This document shows, in pieces, positions 1,654-11,744 of a DNA stretch of 11,786 nucleotides. Each line of letters begins with the position of its first letter. The stretch's first letter is position 1. Below the pieces are notes generated by a model that was given only the letters and a program-made list of their open reading frames with translations, ran no database searches and had not been told where the DNA came from. Both the position numbers and the translations under genes were made by a program. This stretch comes from Patescibacteria group bacterium (GTDB taxonomy: Bacteria; Patescibacteriota; Minisyncoccia; Phycocordibacterales; JANLHH01): NCBI GenBank assembly GCA_038063375.1, contig JBBTVG010000026.1, positions 1 through 11,786 of the forward strand. The letters run 5' to 3'.

Positions 1654-1752
1654 TGAGTAGTACCTCTTGGTTTGTGTGAAAATACGAAAAGAACAATCGT
1701 GGAAATTCAAGTTTGTTTATTATGTCTAGCGAGGAAGGGGATGAAAACTGGA

Positions 1753-1771
1753 ATCCCGACGATGTCGGGAT
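1753..1771 (+). other. Perfect 8-bp/3-nt-loop palindromic hairpin ATCCCGAC-gat-GTCGGGAT embedded in a cluster of GGA motifs. See the finding on a possible CsrA-binding sRNA.
   Basis: The palindrome was read directly. Five GGA/GGGA motifs lie within 1733-1774 on the plus strand. Confidence 0.3.
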
Positions 1772-2093
1772 GGAAATTTTCATTTCATCCGAGCGACATT
1801 GTTTTCTTAGGTGCAAAGCAACTTAGAAAACAAGAAGTACTCCTGTGGTGCGACGACATAACAAAAGGTTTAATACCTCCCCAACTTGCTCTGGGATTAA
1901 TGCCTTTTATAGCAAATATCCGACATGTTGTCAACCGAGCACTACTTTTATTTTACTCTTGGAACAAATGAGGTTTTTGACGGATCATGTAATCATTGTT
2001 TCGGCAGATGCCTGACGGAGAAGTTAATAAAAGTGGTGCTCGGTCAATCCCACCGGAGAGATGAACATAAGCGCTAGGATTCTTCCGTAATTT

Positions 2094-2818: not shown

Positions 2819-3100
2819 ATGAAAATACGTTCATTTTCCATGCTTCATTACATTGAAAAATTACAAACAAAGCCGGAATATATTCGCAAGAGGATCCTTG
2901 TCGCGATTGTGGCGGTCTTTATGAGCATTATCGGTTTTGTATGGGTTTCCACATTTTCATTGCGGTTTGGAGGAGATATTCCTCTGCAAGAAGATGAACA
3001 AGCCCCCTCGCCATTTGCGGTGATCAAAGAAAGCGGCAAGACGTTCTCTTTGGATTTCAACCGAGGAATTGAGCAGTTAAAAGAGCAATTTGGACAGTAG
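2819..3100 (+). CDS. Hypothetical small single-pass membrane protein, 93 aa, start at the ATG at 2819.
   Basis: A strong AAGGAG Shine-Dalgarno (2807-2812) lies 6 nt before the ATG. One hydrophobic helix is present (ILVAIVAVFMSIIGFVWVSTF). The TTG at 2801 is an unlikely upstream extension. Confidence 0.55.
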   Translation: MKIRSFSMLHYIEKLQTKPEYIRKRILVAIVAVFMSIIGFVWVSTFSLRFGGDIPLQEDEQAPSPFAVIKESGKTFSLDFNRGIEQLKEQFGQ

Positions 3101-3258
3101 ACCCGTTGCGCAATAATTTTTCGTAGCGAGATGATGAATTTTCGTGCGAAAACAGCGAAGCGCGAGGAGGTGAATACAGCGTATTCATTGACGAGTGATG
3201 AGTTGTTTGTAGCCGAAAATTCATCATTGCAGTAGAAAAGGTTATTGCGCAGCGGGTC
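3100..3258. repeat. 159-bp near-perfect nested inverted-repeat (hairpin) element, a MITE-like or structured-RNA candidate.
   Basis: Outer arms 3100-3121 pair with 3237-3258 (22 bp, including 3 G.U/T.G positions). Inner arms 3130-3144 pair with 3214-3228 (15 bp). A central palindrome GAATAC-agc-GTATTC sits at 3172-3186. The element is flanked by TA on both sides (3098-3099, 3259-3260). Confidence 0.6.
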
Positions 3259-3281
3259 TAATAGTCAGCGACGGCAATATA

Positions 3282-3290
3282 TGTTAAAAT
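3282..3290 (+). promoter_or_regulatory. Candidate extended -10 promoter (TGtTAAAAT) for gyrA.
   Basis: TG at 3282-3283 and TAAAAT at 3285-3290, 27 nt upstream of the gyrA ATG and downstream of the inverted-repeat element. Confidence 0.3.
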
Positions 3291-3316
3291 AGGTTCAAAT
3301 AGAGAGACTTGAGTAT

Positions 3317-5776
3317 ATGATGAAAAAGGATGACAACCCGGTAGACGGGCGGACAGATGGTCTTGTGCCAGTGGATATAAGCTCCGAAATGAAGGAGTCT
3401 TATTTGAATTACGCCATGTCGGTCATTACTTCCCGCGCGTTACCGGATGCGCGCGATGGATTAAAACCTGTGCAAAGGCGTATTCTTTTTGCCATGCACG
3501 GTATCGGCCTCACCTACGCCGCACGACCGAGGAAGTCAGCCGCAGTGGTCGGAGAAGTGCTTGGTAAGTACCACCCGCACGGCGACTCATCCGTGTACGA
3601 AGCGATGGTTAAAATGGCCCAAGAATTCTCATTCCGTTATCCGTTGGTGATCGGACAGGGAAACTTCGGCTCCATAGACGGCGATTCGGCCGCCGCGATG
3701 CGATATACCGAAGCAAAGATGTCCCGTCTCACCGCGGAGATGCTGGGTGATCTTGAAAAAGATACGGTACAATGGCGCCCTAATTACGATGGGACGAGAA
3801 TGGAGCCGGTATATCTTCCCGCGGCTGTTCCGCATCTCATTTTAAATGGCACCTTAGGTATCGCCGTCGGTATGGCAACCAATATTCCCCCGCACAATTT
3901 AAGGGAGGTTCTTGACGCTACCATGCATCTTGTAGACAATCCAAAAGCGACCACTGAAGACCTTCTCCAGTTTGTCACCGGCCCCGATTTTCCCACGGGA
4001 GGAATAGCGTTCGGCAAAGAAGATATTCATCACGCGTACGCTTCCGGCCGTGGGGGCGTTGCGGTGAGAGGTGATGCGGAGATCATTGAAAACAAGGCGG
4101 GCAATTTCCAGATCATCATTACGTCCATTCCGTTCCGCGTGAACAAGTCGGAAATGATCATCAAGATCGCCGACCTCGTGCGGGACAAACGTCTTGAAGG
4201 CATCAAGGCGCTTCGGGATGAGTCTACCAAAGATATTCGCGTGGCCATTGATCTGAAGAGCGGCGCGCAACCGCAGAAGATATTGAATTATCTCTACAAG
4301 CACACCGACCTTGAGTCCACATTCAATTTCAATATGGTGGCGCTTGTTGACGGCGTACCGCAGGTGCTTTCTCTTAAGGGAATACTGGAAGAATTCATCA
4401 AGCACCGCAAGGATGTGGTGACACGCCGCACGAAATATGAATTACGCAAGGCGGAAGAACGCGCCCACATTTTGGAAGGGCTCAAAAAAGCGCTTGATAA
4501 TATTGATAAGGTGATCAAAATCATCAAGCAATCAAAAGATACCGCCTCGGCGAATATGAACCTGATGAAAGAATTCAAGTTTAGCGTGGAACAAGCGACC
4601 GCTATTCTTGAGATGAAGTTGCAAAAACTCGCGGGATTGGAACGGAAGAATATTGAAGACGAACTCAAAGAGAAACTTGAACTTATCAAAAAGCTCAAAG
4701 CAATACTTGCCGACGCGAAGAGGGTCTTGCAGATCATCAAAGACGAGCTTGCGAGCATCAAAGAGCGTTACGGCGATGATCGAAAGACGAGGGTCATGAA
4801 ATCAAAAGCGCGCGTTTTGGCGCCTGAAGACTTGGTGGAAGAAAAAGAAGCTGTTTTGGTGCTCACCCGCGGAGGATACATCAAGCGCATTGACCCCGGA
4901 GAATTCAAGAAGCAAAAACGAGGTGGTGTGGGGGTCATTGATCTTGATACGAAAGAAGAGGATGTGGTAACCATATTCATTACCACCAGCACGCACAGCG
5001 ATCTCTTGTTCTTTAGCGATAAAGGCAAGGCGTATCAGATGAAGATGTACGACATACCCGAAGGAAGACGCGCCACCAAGGGGAAATCCATTATGAATTT
5101 CCTCTCTCTTGGTGCGGGAGAATCAGTCTCTTCAGTGCTTGCTATGCCGAAGACCATCAAAGAAATGCAGGATCTCTCATTGTTCATGGTGACCAAGCAC
5201 GGTGTCGCAAAGAAAGTATCTGCCGAGAGCTTTAAAGATGTGCGACAGAGCGGTCTTATCGCGATCAAGCTTTCCGACGGCGATGAACTTCTGGCGGCTC
5301 TTTTTGTGGATAAAAGCGACGAAGTGATGCTTGCGAGCTCGCTGGGACAATCCATCAGGTTCAAGGGGTCCGATATCCGCGAGATGGGACGTAACGCGGC
5401 GGGCGTGCGAGCGGTGAAATTGAAAAAGAACGATGAATTGATCGGCGCGGGTATTATGAAAAAAGGCGCCGAAGGTTCACAGTTTATGATCGTTTCCGCG
5501 AACGGGTTCGGTAAAAAGACGCCGGCAAAAGAATATAAAGTACAAAAGCGCGGCGGCTCGGGCATTAAGACAGCGAAGGTTACTCCCAAGACCGGGCATT
5601 TGATCGCCGCGAGGGTGATCACCGAAGAGGATACGGAAATAGTGGCTGTTTCCAAGAAGGGGCAGGTGATACGAACAGAGCTGAAAGACATCCCTTCTCT
5701 TGGGCGACAAACGCAAGGGGTGCGCATCATGAAATTGCGCGCCGGCGACAATCTGGCTTCAATCGTATGTTTGTAA
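3317..5776 (+). CDS. gyrA: DNA gyrase subunit A, 819 aa.
   Basis: N-terminal breakage-reunion domain with the active-site region and a QRDR-like [12 protein letters not shown]. The GyrA box QKRGGVG appears in the C-terminal beta-pinwheel region, arguing for gyrase rather than ParC. The ORF is long and uninterrupted. Confidence 0.95.
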
Positions 5777-7804: not shown

Positions 7805-8188
7805 ATGATCAAAATATTTAAAAAAACGGCAGTAAGAGTTTTCTATTTTCTCGTCATAGCGATGCCTGTGGTTGTTGTTGCGGCTCCGCCACTTGTGCCG
7901 TGCGGCAATAAAGGTCAACCCACGTGCGACTTTAATCAGCTCATCGGTCTGATAAAAAATCTTATGGACTTCGCGATCATCATCGCGCCGTTTCTTGCCG
8001 CTATCGCGTTTGCGTTCGCGGGCTTCTACTACTTCACGTCGGCGGGCGATACGGGGAAGGTGGAAACGGCGCACGACATATTCAGAAATACCGCCATCGG
8101 GCTTATTATCATACTCGCGGCGTGGTTTGTGGTGAAGGTGATATTGGTCGGACTTGGCGTGACAGGTGATTTTAATTTGCTCAATTAA
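7805..8188 (+). CDS. Small secreted two-TM protein, TrbC/VirB2-like type IV secretion pilin family; paralog 1 of 5.
   Basis: Sec signal peptide, then a mature ~95-aa domain with two hydrophobic helices separated by a short charged loop (SAGDTGKVETAHD). It is homologous to the four downstream ORFs. A Cys pair (PCGNKGQPTC) lies near the mature N-terminus. Confidence 0.5.
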   Translation: MIKIFKKTAVRVFYFLVIAMPVVVVAAPPLVPCGNKGQPTCDFNQLIGLIKNLMDFAIIIAPFLAAIAFAFAGFYYFTSAGDTGKVETAHDIFRNTAIGLIIILAAWFVVKVILVGLGVTGDFNLLN

Positions 8189-8204
8189 TTTAATAATAAA
8201 AGAC

Positions 8205-8585
8205 ATGAAAAATACCGCACGGAGAATTCTCACATATATCAAATGGAACCTCGTTTCGGCGCTTCTGCTAGCCCCTCTGCATTTTATATATGCGCAGACG
8301 GGCGGTGGGAGTGCAAAGGCAACATTGCAATCTCCCCTTGGTGGTGTTGCCAACCTCAATGACCTTATTGAGAAAATTCTCAAGGTGGTGGTTGATATCG
8401 GCACGCCTATCGCCGTTTTATTCATCATCTACGCGGGATTTTTGTTTGTGACGGCGCAGGGGAATGAAACGAAAGTAACAAAAGCAAAGAATGCGTTCAC
8501 CTGGGCGATCATCGGTACTGCCGTGCTCTTGGGCGCGTGGGTTCTTGCGGTTGCCATTGAAGGTACGATAGGAAACTTGAAATAG
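8205..8585 (+). CDS. TrbC/VirB2-like pilin family protein; paralog 2 of 5. The start is the ATG at 8205 (MKNTARRIL...).
   Basis: Signal peptide ending ...HFIYA|QT, then two TM helices with the loop AQGNETKVTKAKNA. It aligns with paralog 1 (IAxLFIIYAGFxFxTAxG...A...AIIGxxxLLxAW). Confidence 0.5.
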   Translation: MKNTARRILTYIKWNLVSALLLAPLHFIYAQTGGGSAKATLQSPLGGVANLNDLIEKILKVVVDIGTPIAVLFIIYAGFLFVTAQGNETKVTKAKNAFTWAIIGTAVLLGAWVLAVAIEGTIGNLK

Positions 8586-8615
8586 ATATCCAAGAAGCGT
8601 CTCTAATATTTAATT

Positions 8616-8993
8616 ATGAAAGCATATACAATCATTCTCGTCGTCTCTTTATTTGCCCCCCTAATTGCCTTTGCCCAGCCAAGAAATTTTGCGGATTTTG
8701 CGGGTGTTATCATCAATATCGGGAACAACCTAGCCCTCCTCTTTATAACCGCCGCGTTTGCCGCGTTTTTGTGGGGGGTGGCGCGAATGGTACTGCACGC
8801 CGACAGTGCCGATGAACGCGAGAAAGGAAAGAAAACCATGACATATGGTCTCATTTCGTTGTTTATTGTATCAGCGTTATGGGGCATTATGGCGCTGACA
8901 CGCAATACGTTCTTTTTTAGCGGCGGTTCTTCCAGCGGTGGCGGTAACAGGTGCAATTCAATCTTATGTCTGGACATAGGGATAAAACTGTAA
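8616..8993 (+). CDS. TrbC/VirB2-like pilin family protein; paralog 3 of 5, with a Gly/Ser-rich, Cys-containing C-terminal tail.
   Basis: Signal peptide ...LIAFA|QP. The core AAFAAFLWGVARMVLHADSADEREKGKKTMTYGLISLFIVSALWGIMAL is conserved with paralogs 4 and 5. The tail is GGSSSGGGNRCNSILC. Confidence 0.5.
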   Translation: MKAYTIILVVSLFAPLIAFAQPRNFADFAGVIINIGNNLALLFITAAFAAFLWGVARMVLHADSADEREKGKKTMTYGLISLFIVSALWGIMALTRNTFFFSGGSSSGGGNRCNSILCLDIGIKL

Positions 8994-9136
8994 AGCAGCT
9001 AGGAACATCCGCAGTGTGTATACGGGCATAATCCACAAGGGTTGTTTGTTATTTGGGCCGGAATTGGGTATGATTACGATAGGAGAATACACGTACAAAG
9101 GTCGCTTATTTTCTGCATTTGTTTATTAAAAGAATA

Positions 9137-9144
9137 TGTATAAT
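9137..9144 (+). promoter_or_regulatory. Extended -10 promoter TGTATAAT, an internal promoter ahead of pilin paralog 4.
   Basis: TGnTATAAT at 9137-9144, 20 nt upstream of the ATG at 9165, inside the only long (171-bp) gap in the array. Confidence 0.4.
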
Positions 9145-9164
9145 TTGGTTACACAGTATCAAGC

Positions 9165-9500
9165 ATGAAAAAATTTATTCCATTGATAGCCTTCCTCGTA
9201 TTGCCATCGGTAGCATTAGCACAGACTGTTCAAACGGTTATTGCAACGGTTAGCAACATTCTTAATCTTGTTATCCCCATTGTTATTACGCTTGCGGTCA
9301 TTTACTTTTTCTGGGGCCTGGCGAAGTATATTCTGAATGCTGACAACGAAGAGGCGAGAACAGAAGGAAGGAGCATCATGATCTACGGCATTATTGCCCT
9401 TTTTGTGATGGTTTCCGTGTGGGGATTGATCGGACTTGTCGGCAATACCTTTAACGTTGGACAGGGCGGTTCCGGAAGAGGATTCATTCCGACCCTCTAA
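9165..9500 (+). CDS. TrbC/VirB2-like pilin family protein; paralog 4 of 5.
   Basis: Signal peptide ...SVALA|QT. The core LAVIYFFWGLAKYILNADNEEARTEGRSIMIYGIIALFVMVSVWGLIGL is present. The tail is Gly-rich (GQGGSGRG). Confidence 0.5.
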   Translation: MKKFIPLIAFLVLPSVALAQTVQTVIATVSNILNLVIPIVITLAVIYFFWGLAKYILNADNEEARTEGRSIMIYGIIALFVMVSVWGLIGLVGNTFNVGQGGSGRGFIPTL

Positions 9501-9512
9501 CGCGTACCCCGT

Positions 9513-9782
9513 ATGGATATTGGCGCGCTGATTGCAAAAATAGAGCAGAATATCATTCAACCGCTGATTGGTGTTCTTTTTGCGCTCGCGTTTGCGATAT
9601 TTTTGTGGGGAGTAGCGCGTTTTATCTTTCAATCAGATGATGAGAGCGCGCGCGAGCAAGGCAAACAACATATTATCTGGGGGTTGGTGGGAATGTTCAT
9701 CATGGTGTCGGTCTTTGCCATCATTCATCTTATTGTGGCAACGTTTGGCATACCTCCACCACCGAATCTGCCGATATTCTAA
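9513..9782 (+). CDS. TrbC/VirB2-like pilin family protein; paralog 5 of 5. It lacks a cleavable signal peptide and starts 12 nt after the paralog 4 stop.
   Basis: The protein begins directly with the region that is the mature domain in the other paralogs (DIGALIAKIEQNIIQPLIGVLFALAFAIFLWGVARFIFQSDDESAREQGKQHIIWGLVGMFIMVSVFAI). An in-frame stop lies 12 nt upstream, so no N-terminal extension is possible. The tail is Pro-rich. Confidence 0.45.
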   Translation: MDIGALIAKIEQNIIQPLIGVLFALAFAIFLWGVARFIFQSDDESAREQGKQHIIWGLVGMFIMVSVFAIIHLIVATFGIPPPPNLPIF

Positions 9783-10629: not shown

Positions 10630-11744
10630 GAGACACCCCCTTTTTCTTCCGTGTCTTTCAGGACACTTCCGGCGGCCTTTGCGATACCGATTAACTCCTT
10701 GAACCCATCAGTACCGATAACAACTGTCTTTTGGCCGGGATTCTGAGTAACGGCCCGTGCCGTTTCAGCTCCCAAGACCGCGGGACCCTCCAAGTTGAGT
10801 TGAGCCATCATTTTTTTGAGTCCGGTCGTTCTTCCCTTGAGAGTTTCTCTCTCCTTTGCACCCTCGCCCCTGCCTTCAAGTTCAAGTTTTTTTCTCTGTG
10901 CTTCGGCTTCGATAACAGTCGCCTTTGCTTGGAGTGTTGCTTCGGGCACCCTTAGAATGGCTACGCTGAGCTCGTGACTAAAGATGATTGATTTTACTTC
11001 CGCGATAGCGATCTCAACGCCCCATGGTCTCGAACTTTTTGTGCCGGCGACTAGATCTCGCAACTCGCCCTTCAACATTTGCCCATACTTCTCAAGGTCC
11101 TTCAGCGCAGCTGCGGGAGTAACTTTGGAAAATTCCCGCATGAGCACTGTGATCATGATGTCTTCCATTTGTCGACGCGCTTCTTCTCTGCTGCCGATTG
11201 TGGTTAAAAACTGTATGTAATCCACAATGCGCCAGCGCACGATGGGAACGACTTCAGCGGTTATTCTCACGTCCAATGGATCGTCACTTGGTCTCTCAGG
11301 ATGCCCAAAAGGGATTCTGATTGGCGGGAACATTATCCCAACCAGTTCCGGCGGTACCACCTCTGGCTCTCCCCGCTTCACTCTGTAGATATGTTGCGGA
11401 TCCGCCGGGAGTTCATCTTCTATGGTCAAACGAGTTCCCTTACTGAGCTGACAAATACCCGGTGGAATAAATACTAAGCCGGATGTAAGGTTGTTAATGG
11501 GATTTCCAAAAAAGAGTCGAGCTCCTAGTTCGGTAGGCCCAACAATCCGAAACCCCGCCACAGTATAGAGTATCTGAAACAGAAAAGTGATTAAACCCCA
11601 ATTCAATTTCGTTTCGTCAAATTGCTGTGAGTGCTCGGAGAGCACAAAATACTCTATTGCAAACAATGACACATAGACTATCGTTATCGTGATCCAAAAT
11701 GTTGTGAAATTCGCAAATTCTTTAATCTTTGCCTTTAATTCCAT
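10626..11744 (-). CDS. SPFH/Band-7 domain protein (stomatin/flotillin/HflK-C family, YqiK-like), 372 aa.
   Basis: N-terminal TM (FWITITIVYVSLFAI), an SPFH core and a C-terminal Glu/Ala/Lys/Arg-rich coiled segment (VIEAEAQRKKLELEGRGEGAKERETLKGR) typical of the family. A GGAGGTG Shine-Dalgarno lies 6 nt upstream of the ATG at 11744-11742. Confidence 0.75.
   Translation of the reverse strand: MELKAKIKEFANFTTFWITITIVYVSLFAIEYFVLSEHSQQFDETKLNWGLITFLFQILYTVAGFRIVGPTELGARLFFGNPINNLTSGLVFIPPGICQLSKGTRLTIEDELPADPQHIYRVKRGEPEVVPPELVGIMFPPIRIPFGHPERPSDDPLDVRITAEVVPIVRWRIVDYIQFLTTIGSREEARRQMEDIMITVLMREFSKVTPAAALKDLEKYGQMLKGELRDLVAGTKSSRPWGVEIAIAEVKSIIFSHELSVAILRVPEATLQAKATVIEAEAQRKKLELEGRGEGAKERETLKGRTTGLKKMMAQLNLEGPAVLGAETARAVTQNPGQKTVVIGTDGFKELIGIAKAAGSVLKDTEEKGGVS

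Follow-up and report, generated by a model that had tools for sequence, protein, structure and literature searches.

Several kinds of small bacterial element resemble the hairpin that we describe here. The Correia elements (NEMIS) of Neisseria are non-coding, 100–160 bp long, carry ~25-bp terminal inverted repeats and insert at TA; they lie beside genes, are co-transcribed into a long hairpin and have no known cognate transposase (PMC2229807, PMC10969869). RUP of Streptococcus pneumoniae, which is mobilised by IS630-Spn1, is likewise small, with terminal inverted repeats and insertion at TA, and apart from this pair most bacterial MITEs are also without an identified partner (PMC2229807). ERIC/IRU, YPAL/RU-2 and the Rickettsia palindromic elements, of 100–170 bp, are imperfect palindromes whose whole length folds back on itself; they are scattered over intergenic spacers, and a given site may be filled in one strain and empty in another (PMC2229807). 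The IS200/IS605-derived elements and REP recall the present element in another way, by a mobility that depends on a hairpin, by the favouring of one strand and by a fixed short flank on the 5′ side. The features of our element match those that reviews list for bacterial MITEs (PMC10969869, PMC2229807), and its size (palindrome 159 bp, insertion 164 bp) fits prokaryotic MITEs, which are typically <500 bp and in bacteria mostly <200 bp. We read the 159-bp hairpin upstream of gyrA as a non-autonomous transposable element (MITE) whose family is absent from the libraries searched, and give this reading a probability of roughly 0.8.

The hairpin upstream of gyrA

The whole stretch of DNA analysed (the window) is 11,786 nt long, and its genes encode, in order, an S1-domain protein (−), CsrA (−), an MBL-fold hydrolase, a small membrane protein, GyrA, a methyltransferase, a solute-binding protein, five tandem T4SS-pilin paralogues and a Band_7 protein (−). 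The five T4SS_pilin (PF18895) paralogues occupy 7805–9782 (+), and the second and third of them have other lengths and gene calls in the close relative L008 (contigs are cited by L numbers), which suggests that this array turns over rapidly. The palindrome, GACCCGTTGCGCAATAA...TTATTGCGCAGCGGGTC, is imperfect and runs from 3100 to 3258, and its first base is the G of the upstream TAG stop codon (3098–3100), as an earlier note on this DNA had stated. TA dinucleotides bracket it at 3098–3099 on the left and 3259–3260 on the right. The minimum-energy fold of the 159-nt + strand is a single near-continuous hairpin of 64 pairs, 8 of them G-U, with an energy of −86.2 kcal/mol compared with −39.8 ± 3.9 in 200 dinucleotide shuffles (z = −11.9; 0/200 as good), and with DNA folding parameters the + strand gave −39.8 (z = −8.1). 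The reverse strand folds at −60.1 kcal/mol; this fold is weaker because all eight wobble pairs are G-U on the + strand and none is on the reverse. The nested inverted repeat that had been noticed by eye was recovered in the computed fold, with an outer stem of 22 bp, 3 of them G-U (3100–3121 with 3237–3258), an inner stem of 15 bp (3130–3144 with 3214–3228) and the terminal hairpin GGUGAAUAC-AGC-GUAUUCAUU at 3169–3189. The outer arms were missed by the repeat search and are visible in the fold and by direct reading of the sequence.

Comparison with the other copies described below delimits the parts of the element, all given for the + strand. The 5′ terminal inverted repeat GACCCGTTGCGCAATAATTTTTCGT (3100–3124) has the same arm in L018, L020 and L037, and the arm of L021 is a diverged version that differs by 2 substitutions within its first 17 nt and at further positions after them. 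The arms of the inner stem, taken from the minimum-energy fold, span 3130–3147 and 3212–3228. They enclose the centre (3162–3199; copy alignment and motif search), which consists of GCGAGGAGG, the hairpin TGAATAC-AGC-GTATTCA (3171–3187) and TTGACGAGTGAT. The 3′ terminal inverted repeat and the conserved subterminal block, ATTGCAGTAGAAAAGGTTATTGCGCAGCGGGTC (3226–3258; copy alignment), form the best-conserved part of the family alignment and were found in L019, L020, L021, L023 and L037. A 3-nt tail TAA (3259–3261; comparison of the flanks in the window, L020, L037 and L021) separates the palindrome from the right target copy. The element thus has two terminal inverted repeats of about 25 nt around a foldback interior, and we take it to be non-coding. 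Its only ORFs are of 34 aa and 56 aa; a look-up of identical copies of the first returned the gyrA locus only, and a homologue search with the second, which is on the reverse strand, returned the ruvB copy only. On neither strand does a reading of the sequence reveal a T-run after the hairpin, and a terminator scan reported no terminator at the element, in agreement with the earlier judgement that the missing U-tract is at odds with a canonical terminator.

Filled and empty sites beside gyrA

The gene that precedes the element (2819–3100, +; from the ORF list) encodes a small predicted membrane protein of 93 aa, matched no Pfam family, and has its TAG stop (3098–3100) at the insertion point. 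Its homologues, at 76–95% identity and with identical gene order, occur in MAGs labelled Patescibacteria or Candidatus Yonathbacteria and fall into four clusters. The gene that follows is gyrA (3317–5776, +; 819 aa; Pfam DNA_topoisoIV E = 4e-160, DNA_gyraseA_C). From the stop codon to gyrA there are 216 nt in the window and in its closest relatives L008 and L009 (small protein 95% identical), compared with 51–52 nt in L010 (81%), L011–13 (79%) and L014 (76%), the gene order being unchanged. The orthologous gyrA upstream regions, whose comparison had been proposed, therefore differ by presence and absence of the element. Alignment of filled with empty sites gave a clean insertion of 164 nt, made up of the 159-nt palindrome and 5 nt, with TA or TAG repeated: the empty sites of L010, L011 and L014 read GGACAG TAG TCAG, and the filled site reads GGACAG TA(GACCC...GGGTCTAA)TA GTCAG, i.e. 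GACCC...GGGTC TAA. As judged from these empty sites, the left copy of the duplicated target is TA at 3098–3099 (or TAG at 3098–3100), and the right copy is TA at 3262–3263 or TAG at 3262–3264 (filled/empty alignment and promoter scan). The earlier note had considered, as one possibility, a TA target-site duplication directly on both sides of the 159-bp element. There is indeed a TA on both sides, but the one at 3259–3260 is not the duplicate, which comes after the TAA tail at 3262–3263(4), and the inserted length has to be corrected to the palindrome plus 5 nt.

The right target copy also opens the −35 box of the predicted gyrA promoter, a site found by a sigma-70-like consensus scan at 3262–3290 (+), downstream of the element as had been proposed. 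It comprises a −35 TAGTCA (3262–3267), a 17-nt spacer and a TG-extended −10 TAAAAT (3285–3290), and its −35 and −10 hexamers are the same in 6/6 aligned sequences, whether the element is present or absent. With its function deduced from sequence, this site would drive gyrA. In the empty site a single TAG doubles as the stop of the small gene and the start of the predicted −35 TAGTCA, and after the duplication there is one copy for each. Since the duplication leaves the small gene with its stop codon and gyrA with its predicted −35 box, the insertion looks harmless, and it is presumably neutral for the small gene and for gyrA. The likely course of events is that, in an ancestor of the strain group, the element entered the TA within the TAG stop of the small gene upstream of gyrA, and that the short duplication of its target (TA or TAG) recreated the stop on the left and supplied the TAG of the predicted −35 on the right, so that neither gene would have been damaged.

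A second copy between ruvB and yebC and copies in other genomes

An exact-protein look-up placed the window locus in Hainich groundwater assemblies and in the MAG GCA_964355485.1, on contig CAYHDZ010000014.1 (L005). About 60 nt past the right end of the window, L005 carries a 931-bp insertion sequence (11949–12879) with a 275-aa rve/rve_3 transposase and ends of about 21 nt; in L007, an assembly of the same strain group, the site is unoccupied. A second copy of the hairpin element is present in the same MAG, on contig CAYHDZ010000015.1 (L037) at 11150–11365; it is 216 nt long, inverted, and lies between ruvB and yebC, beginning directly after the ruvB stop and ending 14 nt short of the yebC start in an apparent operon. 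This position, together with the lack of a T-run and of any match in the scan, led us to reject an intrinsic terminator. The ruvB locus is also on a 92.8-kb contig of the same sample with matching coverage (103x versus 104x; L035, L004). On L035 the dnaN-dnaA region (17000–21000) has 31–35% GC compared with about 47% elsewhere on the contig. The ruvB site is empty in a relative, L043, where it reads CTATTATAG/AAAA, precisely what is expected once the palindrome and 5 nt are taken out of the filled site. The ruvB insertion is independent of the gyrA one and likewise splits a TAG stop, between TA and G. That both insertions in GCA_964355485.1 split TAG stops, and that at gyrA the stop and the predicted −35 box are recreated by the duplication, illustrates the way in which such elements last in genomes with little spare room.

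We searched for an end pattern, GACCCGYYGCGCAATAAYYTT (21 nt, exact), in one genome per GTDB species, in the JGI metagenomes and in IMG/VR. Among the GTDB species genomes, at least three loci were found in the MAG CAYXAG01 (labelled Saccharibacteria, 53–59% GC), namely a complete copy (L020; 203 nt) that has a lemA-like gene on one side and metK on the other, and two copies truncated by contig ends (L018 and L019). The JGI metagenomes contain a diverged copy of 159–162 nt in two contigs of 38% GC (L021 and L026), and the Hainich contig L023 stops within the element, just past ruvB. IMG/VR gave 0 matches to the end pattern, BLAST of the element against plasmids and phages gave no match, and a profile search over 409 kb of collected contigs gave no additional copies. 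Matches to a single-arm pattern in L015, L016, L017, L022 and L024 were set aside as chance, their count, which includes three from the GTDB species genomes, being near a rough chance estimate; L015 and L022 have common flanking sequence, apparently that of one gene, and the matches in L015, L017 and L022 appear, when the DNA is read by eye, to be in coding sequence reading KIIAQRV. A text search of papers for the end sequence returned unrelated primers only. Dispersed copies, which the earlier note had named as the mark of a MITE, are thus present both within the MAG that carries the window locus (a second copy) and elsewhere (at least three loci in CAYXAG01). The occurrence of these ends in genomes of 38% to about 55% GC suggests that the family has spread horizontally. 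Moreover, short-read contigs break inside the element (L001–3, L007, L018, L019, L023, L038, L039 and L041), and the break points are where the gyrA and ruvB copies become identical, which is the usual signature of a repeat; the element accounts for the way in which contigs of these MAGs repeatedly end at the gyrA and ruvB loci.

Conserved ends, pairing and the MITE reading

The family has a conserved 5′ end, (TA)GACCCGCTGCGCAATAATTTTTCGT, and a conserved 3′ block of about 33–45 nt, ...ATTGCAGYAGAAAAGGTTATTGCGCAGCGGGTC(T); terminal repeats of 17–25 nt are kept, and the interiors differ between genomes. All four complete copies fold end to end, with z = −11.9, −14.2, −7.1 and −8.5. In an alignment of five sequences 86% of 313 cells were paired, compared with 36–49% when the partners were slid, and the value for outer-stem cells was 93.8%. 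Eleven pairs had changed on both sides, counted in a small sample of five sequences with the structure taken from one member. By this alignment, the long hairpin is a property of the family that is maintained by compensatory changes. In element orientation the flanks are TA/.../TAA TA in the window, TA/.../TCA TA in L020, TA/.../TTA TA in L037 and TA/.../TA in L021. The 5′ flank is TA at 5/5 of the 5′ junctions seen (window, L018, L020, L021 and L037), and the dinucleotide after the 3′ end is TA in the window and L021, TC in L020, TT in L037 and TG in L019. To account for the empty sites, 3 additional nt are needed ahead of the second TA; a duplicated TA with a 3-nt TNA tail fits 3/4 complete copies, and the alternative, a 3-nt duplication with ends AGACCC...GGGTCT, fits 2/4, while the ruvB site allows a duplication of up to TATA.

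These data support the MITE reading that had been put forward from the sequence of the window, in particular through the dispersed copies and the filled and empty sites at gyrA. Terminal inverted repeats are present (the 22-bp outer stem, with arms of ~25 nt conserved across genomes), a target duplication is seen at two independent sites, gyrA and ruvB (TA/TAG, up to TATA), and both dispersal and presence/absence between relatives, which are criteria for a MITE, were observed. The element inserted at TA in an AT-rich spot with a short duplication, has conserved ends and has spread within and between genomes. Some features count against a MITE. The copy number is low, with two copies seen in GCA_964355485.1, part of which was scanned; the element is not AT-rich (45% GC compared with 47% for the window); and pairing along the whole length, together with the preference of one strand for folding, exceeds what end binding by a transposase requires. 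The family is new, because it was not found in the libraries searched, but of a well-known kind, and we class it as a low-copy MITE.

The element would owe its mobility to a transposase acting in trans through binding to the conserved ends. The suggestion that the element derives from IS630/Tc1 stays unproven, because no autonomous partner was found: none of the end-pattern matches in GTDB genomes, JGI metagenomes and IMG/VR belonged to an autonomous element with matching ends, and no pair of terminal inverted repeats ~1 kb apart was seen in the genome or metagenome scans. As partners, the 931-bp rve insertion sequence was rejected since its ends, AACCAATAGCTTCACACCACC, are unrelated, and the HTH_38 gene of L011 since its 37-nt repeats are unrelated. 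Read-through from the upstream gene would produce a double-stranded RNA of 160 nt, which, by analogy with Correia elements, could be a substrate of RNase III (PMC10969869), and the element may have a side effect at the RNA level when it is transcribed. A MITE family is hereby added to a group of bacteria whose genomes are very small, for which a literature text search returned no paper whose title or abstract concerned MITEs in Patescibacteria or the Candidate Phyla Radiation.

A second element family and a 57-nt module

The window contains another insertion, of about 190 nt, at 1716–1905 (+) in the spacer that separates csrA from the MBL-fold gene; TTTAT flanks it on either side, and L010 has the site empty. 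It represents a second family, which lacks terminal inverted repeats and is made of conserved blocks and covarying stems in the order AGCGAGGA, P2, CCGAGCGAC, an optional P3 with the tail GAAGTACTCCTGTGGTGCGAC, a closing stem and AACAAAAGGTTTAATACC. Other copies are at L035 12862–13006 and L011 9815–9965 (−); 10 pairs covary among the three copies, and a comparison with Rfam gave no match. A short form of 88 nt (L011 16017–16118) lies between two T4SS-pilin genes and is absent in L012, which is of the same species from another sample; this polymorphism has a 9-bp duplication, TTTATTATT, and suggests that the second family is active now or was so recently. MAFFT misplaced a 57-nt gap in the short forms, and the alignment was read by eye instead. 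In L011, from a related species, the csrA to MBL-gene spacer contains, at 7941–9009, a gene for a 335-aa HTH_38/HTH_32 protein with imperfect 37-nt inverted repeats around it, probably another insertion sequence in the spacer where the window has the second family.

The ruvB copy of the hairpin element differs from the gyrA copy chiefly by 57 extra nt after GACGAGCGAC, a module that the centre of the gyrA copy does not have at this point. The module consists of a hairpin and the tail GAAGTACTCYTGTGGTGCG. The ruvB copy has it nested at about L037 11205–11265 (−), and further occurrences are at L004 1–69 and, within the 1716–1905 insertion, at 1798–1854 of the window. Two strains that are nearly identical to the window, L001 and L009, lack precisely this last piece, GCGAC being repeated at the junction. 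In L004 it comes after the tail of what is apparently another module, and it always follows G(A/T)GCGAC. The centre of the gyrA element (3162–3199) carries the two junction motifs of the second family, GCGAGGAGG, a hairpin and GACGAGYGAY. Because of these common motifs, the element might belong to an undescribed structure-dependent mobile system of Patescibacteria and not be a plain MITE with terminal inverted repeats and a DDE transposase; if so, the mobility machinery would recognise the conserved foldback and junction, as single-stranded DNA or as RNA. We regard this as improbable.

Other explanations of the hairpin

It is unlikely that a tyrosine HUH transposase mobilises the element in the form of single-stranded DNA, in the manner of the IS200/IS605-derived palindrome-associated elements or REP/RAYT, with the foldback as the structure recognised. 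Such a mechanism would suit an element that is kept paired by compensatory changes over its entire length and not at its ends alone, that has a constant TA on its 5′ flank (5/5 junctions) and a variable 3-nt tail on the 3′ side, and whose centre has motifs in common with a family that has a conserved structure and no terminal inverted repeats. It would also suit the strand preference, since the same element strand folds better in 4/4 complete copies (−82.5/−56.5, −85.2/−59.9, −126.6/−117.1 and −55.6/−50.8) whichever way the host genes are oriented, two copies having the same orientation as the flanking genes and two being inverted. The wobble pairs per strand, in element orientation, are 8/0, 9/3, 2/1 and 7/4. 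Most of them, however, come from a common ancestor, two being ancestral pairs of TT opposite GG in the element ends, and since the gyrA and ruvB copies diverged about 4 wobbles have arisen on one strand and about 2 on the other (alignment read by eye), so that the strand asymmetry is weak and not significant. GC skew tracks gene orientation, and a replication-strand mutation bias as the cause of the asymmetry is neither supported nor excluded by it. Against the HUH mechanism, the element has genuine terminal inverted repeats (~25 nt) and duplicates its target directly, features that IS200/IS605 elements do not have, and no Y1 or RAYT gene was seen in about 50 kb of this genome. For the same repeats and duplication, we rejected assignment of the element to the palindrome-associated elements of IS200/IS605 or to REP.

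A stabilising or insulating structure of the 3′ UTR had been offered as an alternative to a MITE. In a wider form of this idea, the element would be a cis-acting RNA of the host, located in the small gene's 3′ UTR or in the gyrA leader region and selected as a stabiliser, RNase III site or transcriptional insulator. The + strand is very stable as RNA, with 8 G-U pairs compared with 0 on the reverse, a stop codon and the next promoter border the element exactly, an A to G variant at 3251 in L009 still pairs via G-U, and the Correia elements of Neisseria are RNase III targets (PMC10969869). As the identity of the element, however, this is very unlikely: the orthologous spacer of three more distant relatives is without it, the sister copy is antisense to ruvB-yebC and 2/4 copies are inverted relative to their host genes, and the gyrA promoter lies downstream of the element and is older than the insertion. 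There is also no U-tract and no Rfam match, neither at the gathering score over the whole window nor, apart from noise (E > 3), at a relaxed threshold over 2900–3450. Among structures of known kinds, an integron attC site was rejected since it needs RYYYAAC ... GTTRRRY, while the ends here are GACCCG... and ...CGGGTC and the neighbours are core housekeeping genes, and a hammerhead in the centre or at the ends was rejected for motif mismatch. That several contigs end inside the element could point to a palindromic chimera made by the assembler, but the chance of this is negligible, as the identical 159 nt with both flanks occur in >10 independent assemblies from different samples, including two NCBI MAGs, and on L027, a contig of 144 kb that, to judge by its fragmented genes, seems to come from a long-read assembly.

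Comparison with known systems

The MITE reading can now be set against the systems named at the outset. The IS200/IS605-derived elements and REP have no terminal inverted repeats or target duplications and need a Y1 transposase, of which none was seen here. ERIC/IRU, YPAL/RU-2 and the Rickettsia elements belong to other phyla and have no known sequence in common with the present family; YPAL, moreover, has internal repeats and duplications of 3–26 bp, and the Rickettsia elements also occur within genes. RUP is the model for the proposed origin from IS630, and its ends match a resident IS630 element, whereas no such partner was found here; the insertion described here also differs from RUP in being a palindrome plus 5 nt, and in 2/4 copies TA does not abut both ends. 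The Correia elements and the gyrA element are not known to be related in sequence. A scan detected neither an IHF site nor an outward promoter in our element, which is unlike Correia. The Correia elements are present in hundreds of copies per genome compared with the two seen here, and they are paired at their ends, whereas in the element beside gyrA the whole interior is paired too.
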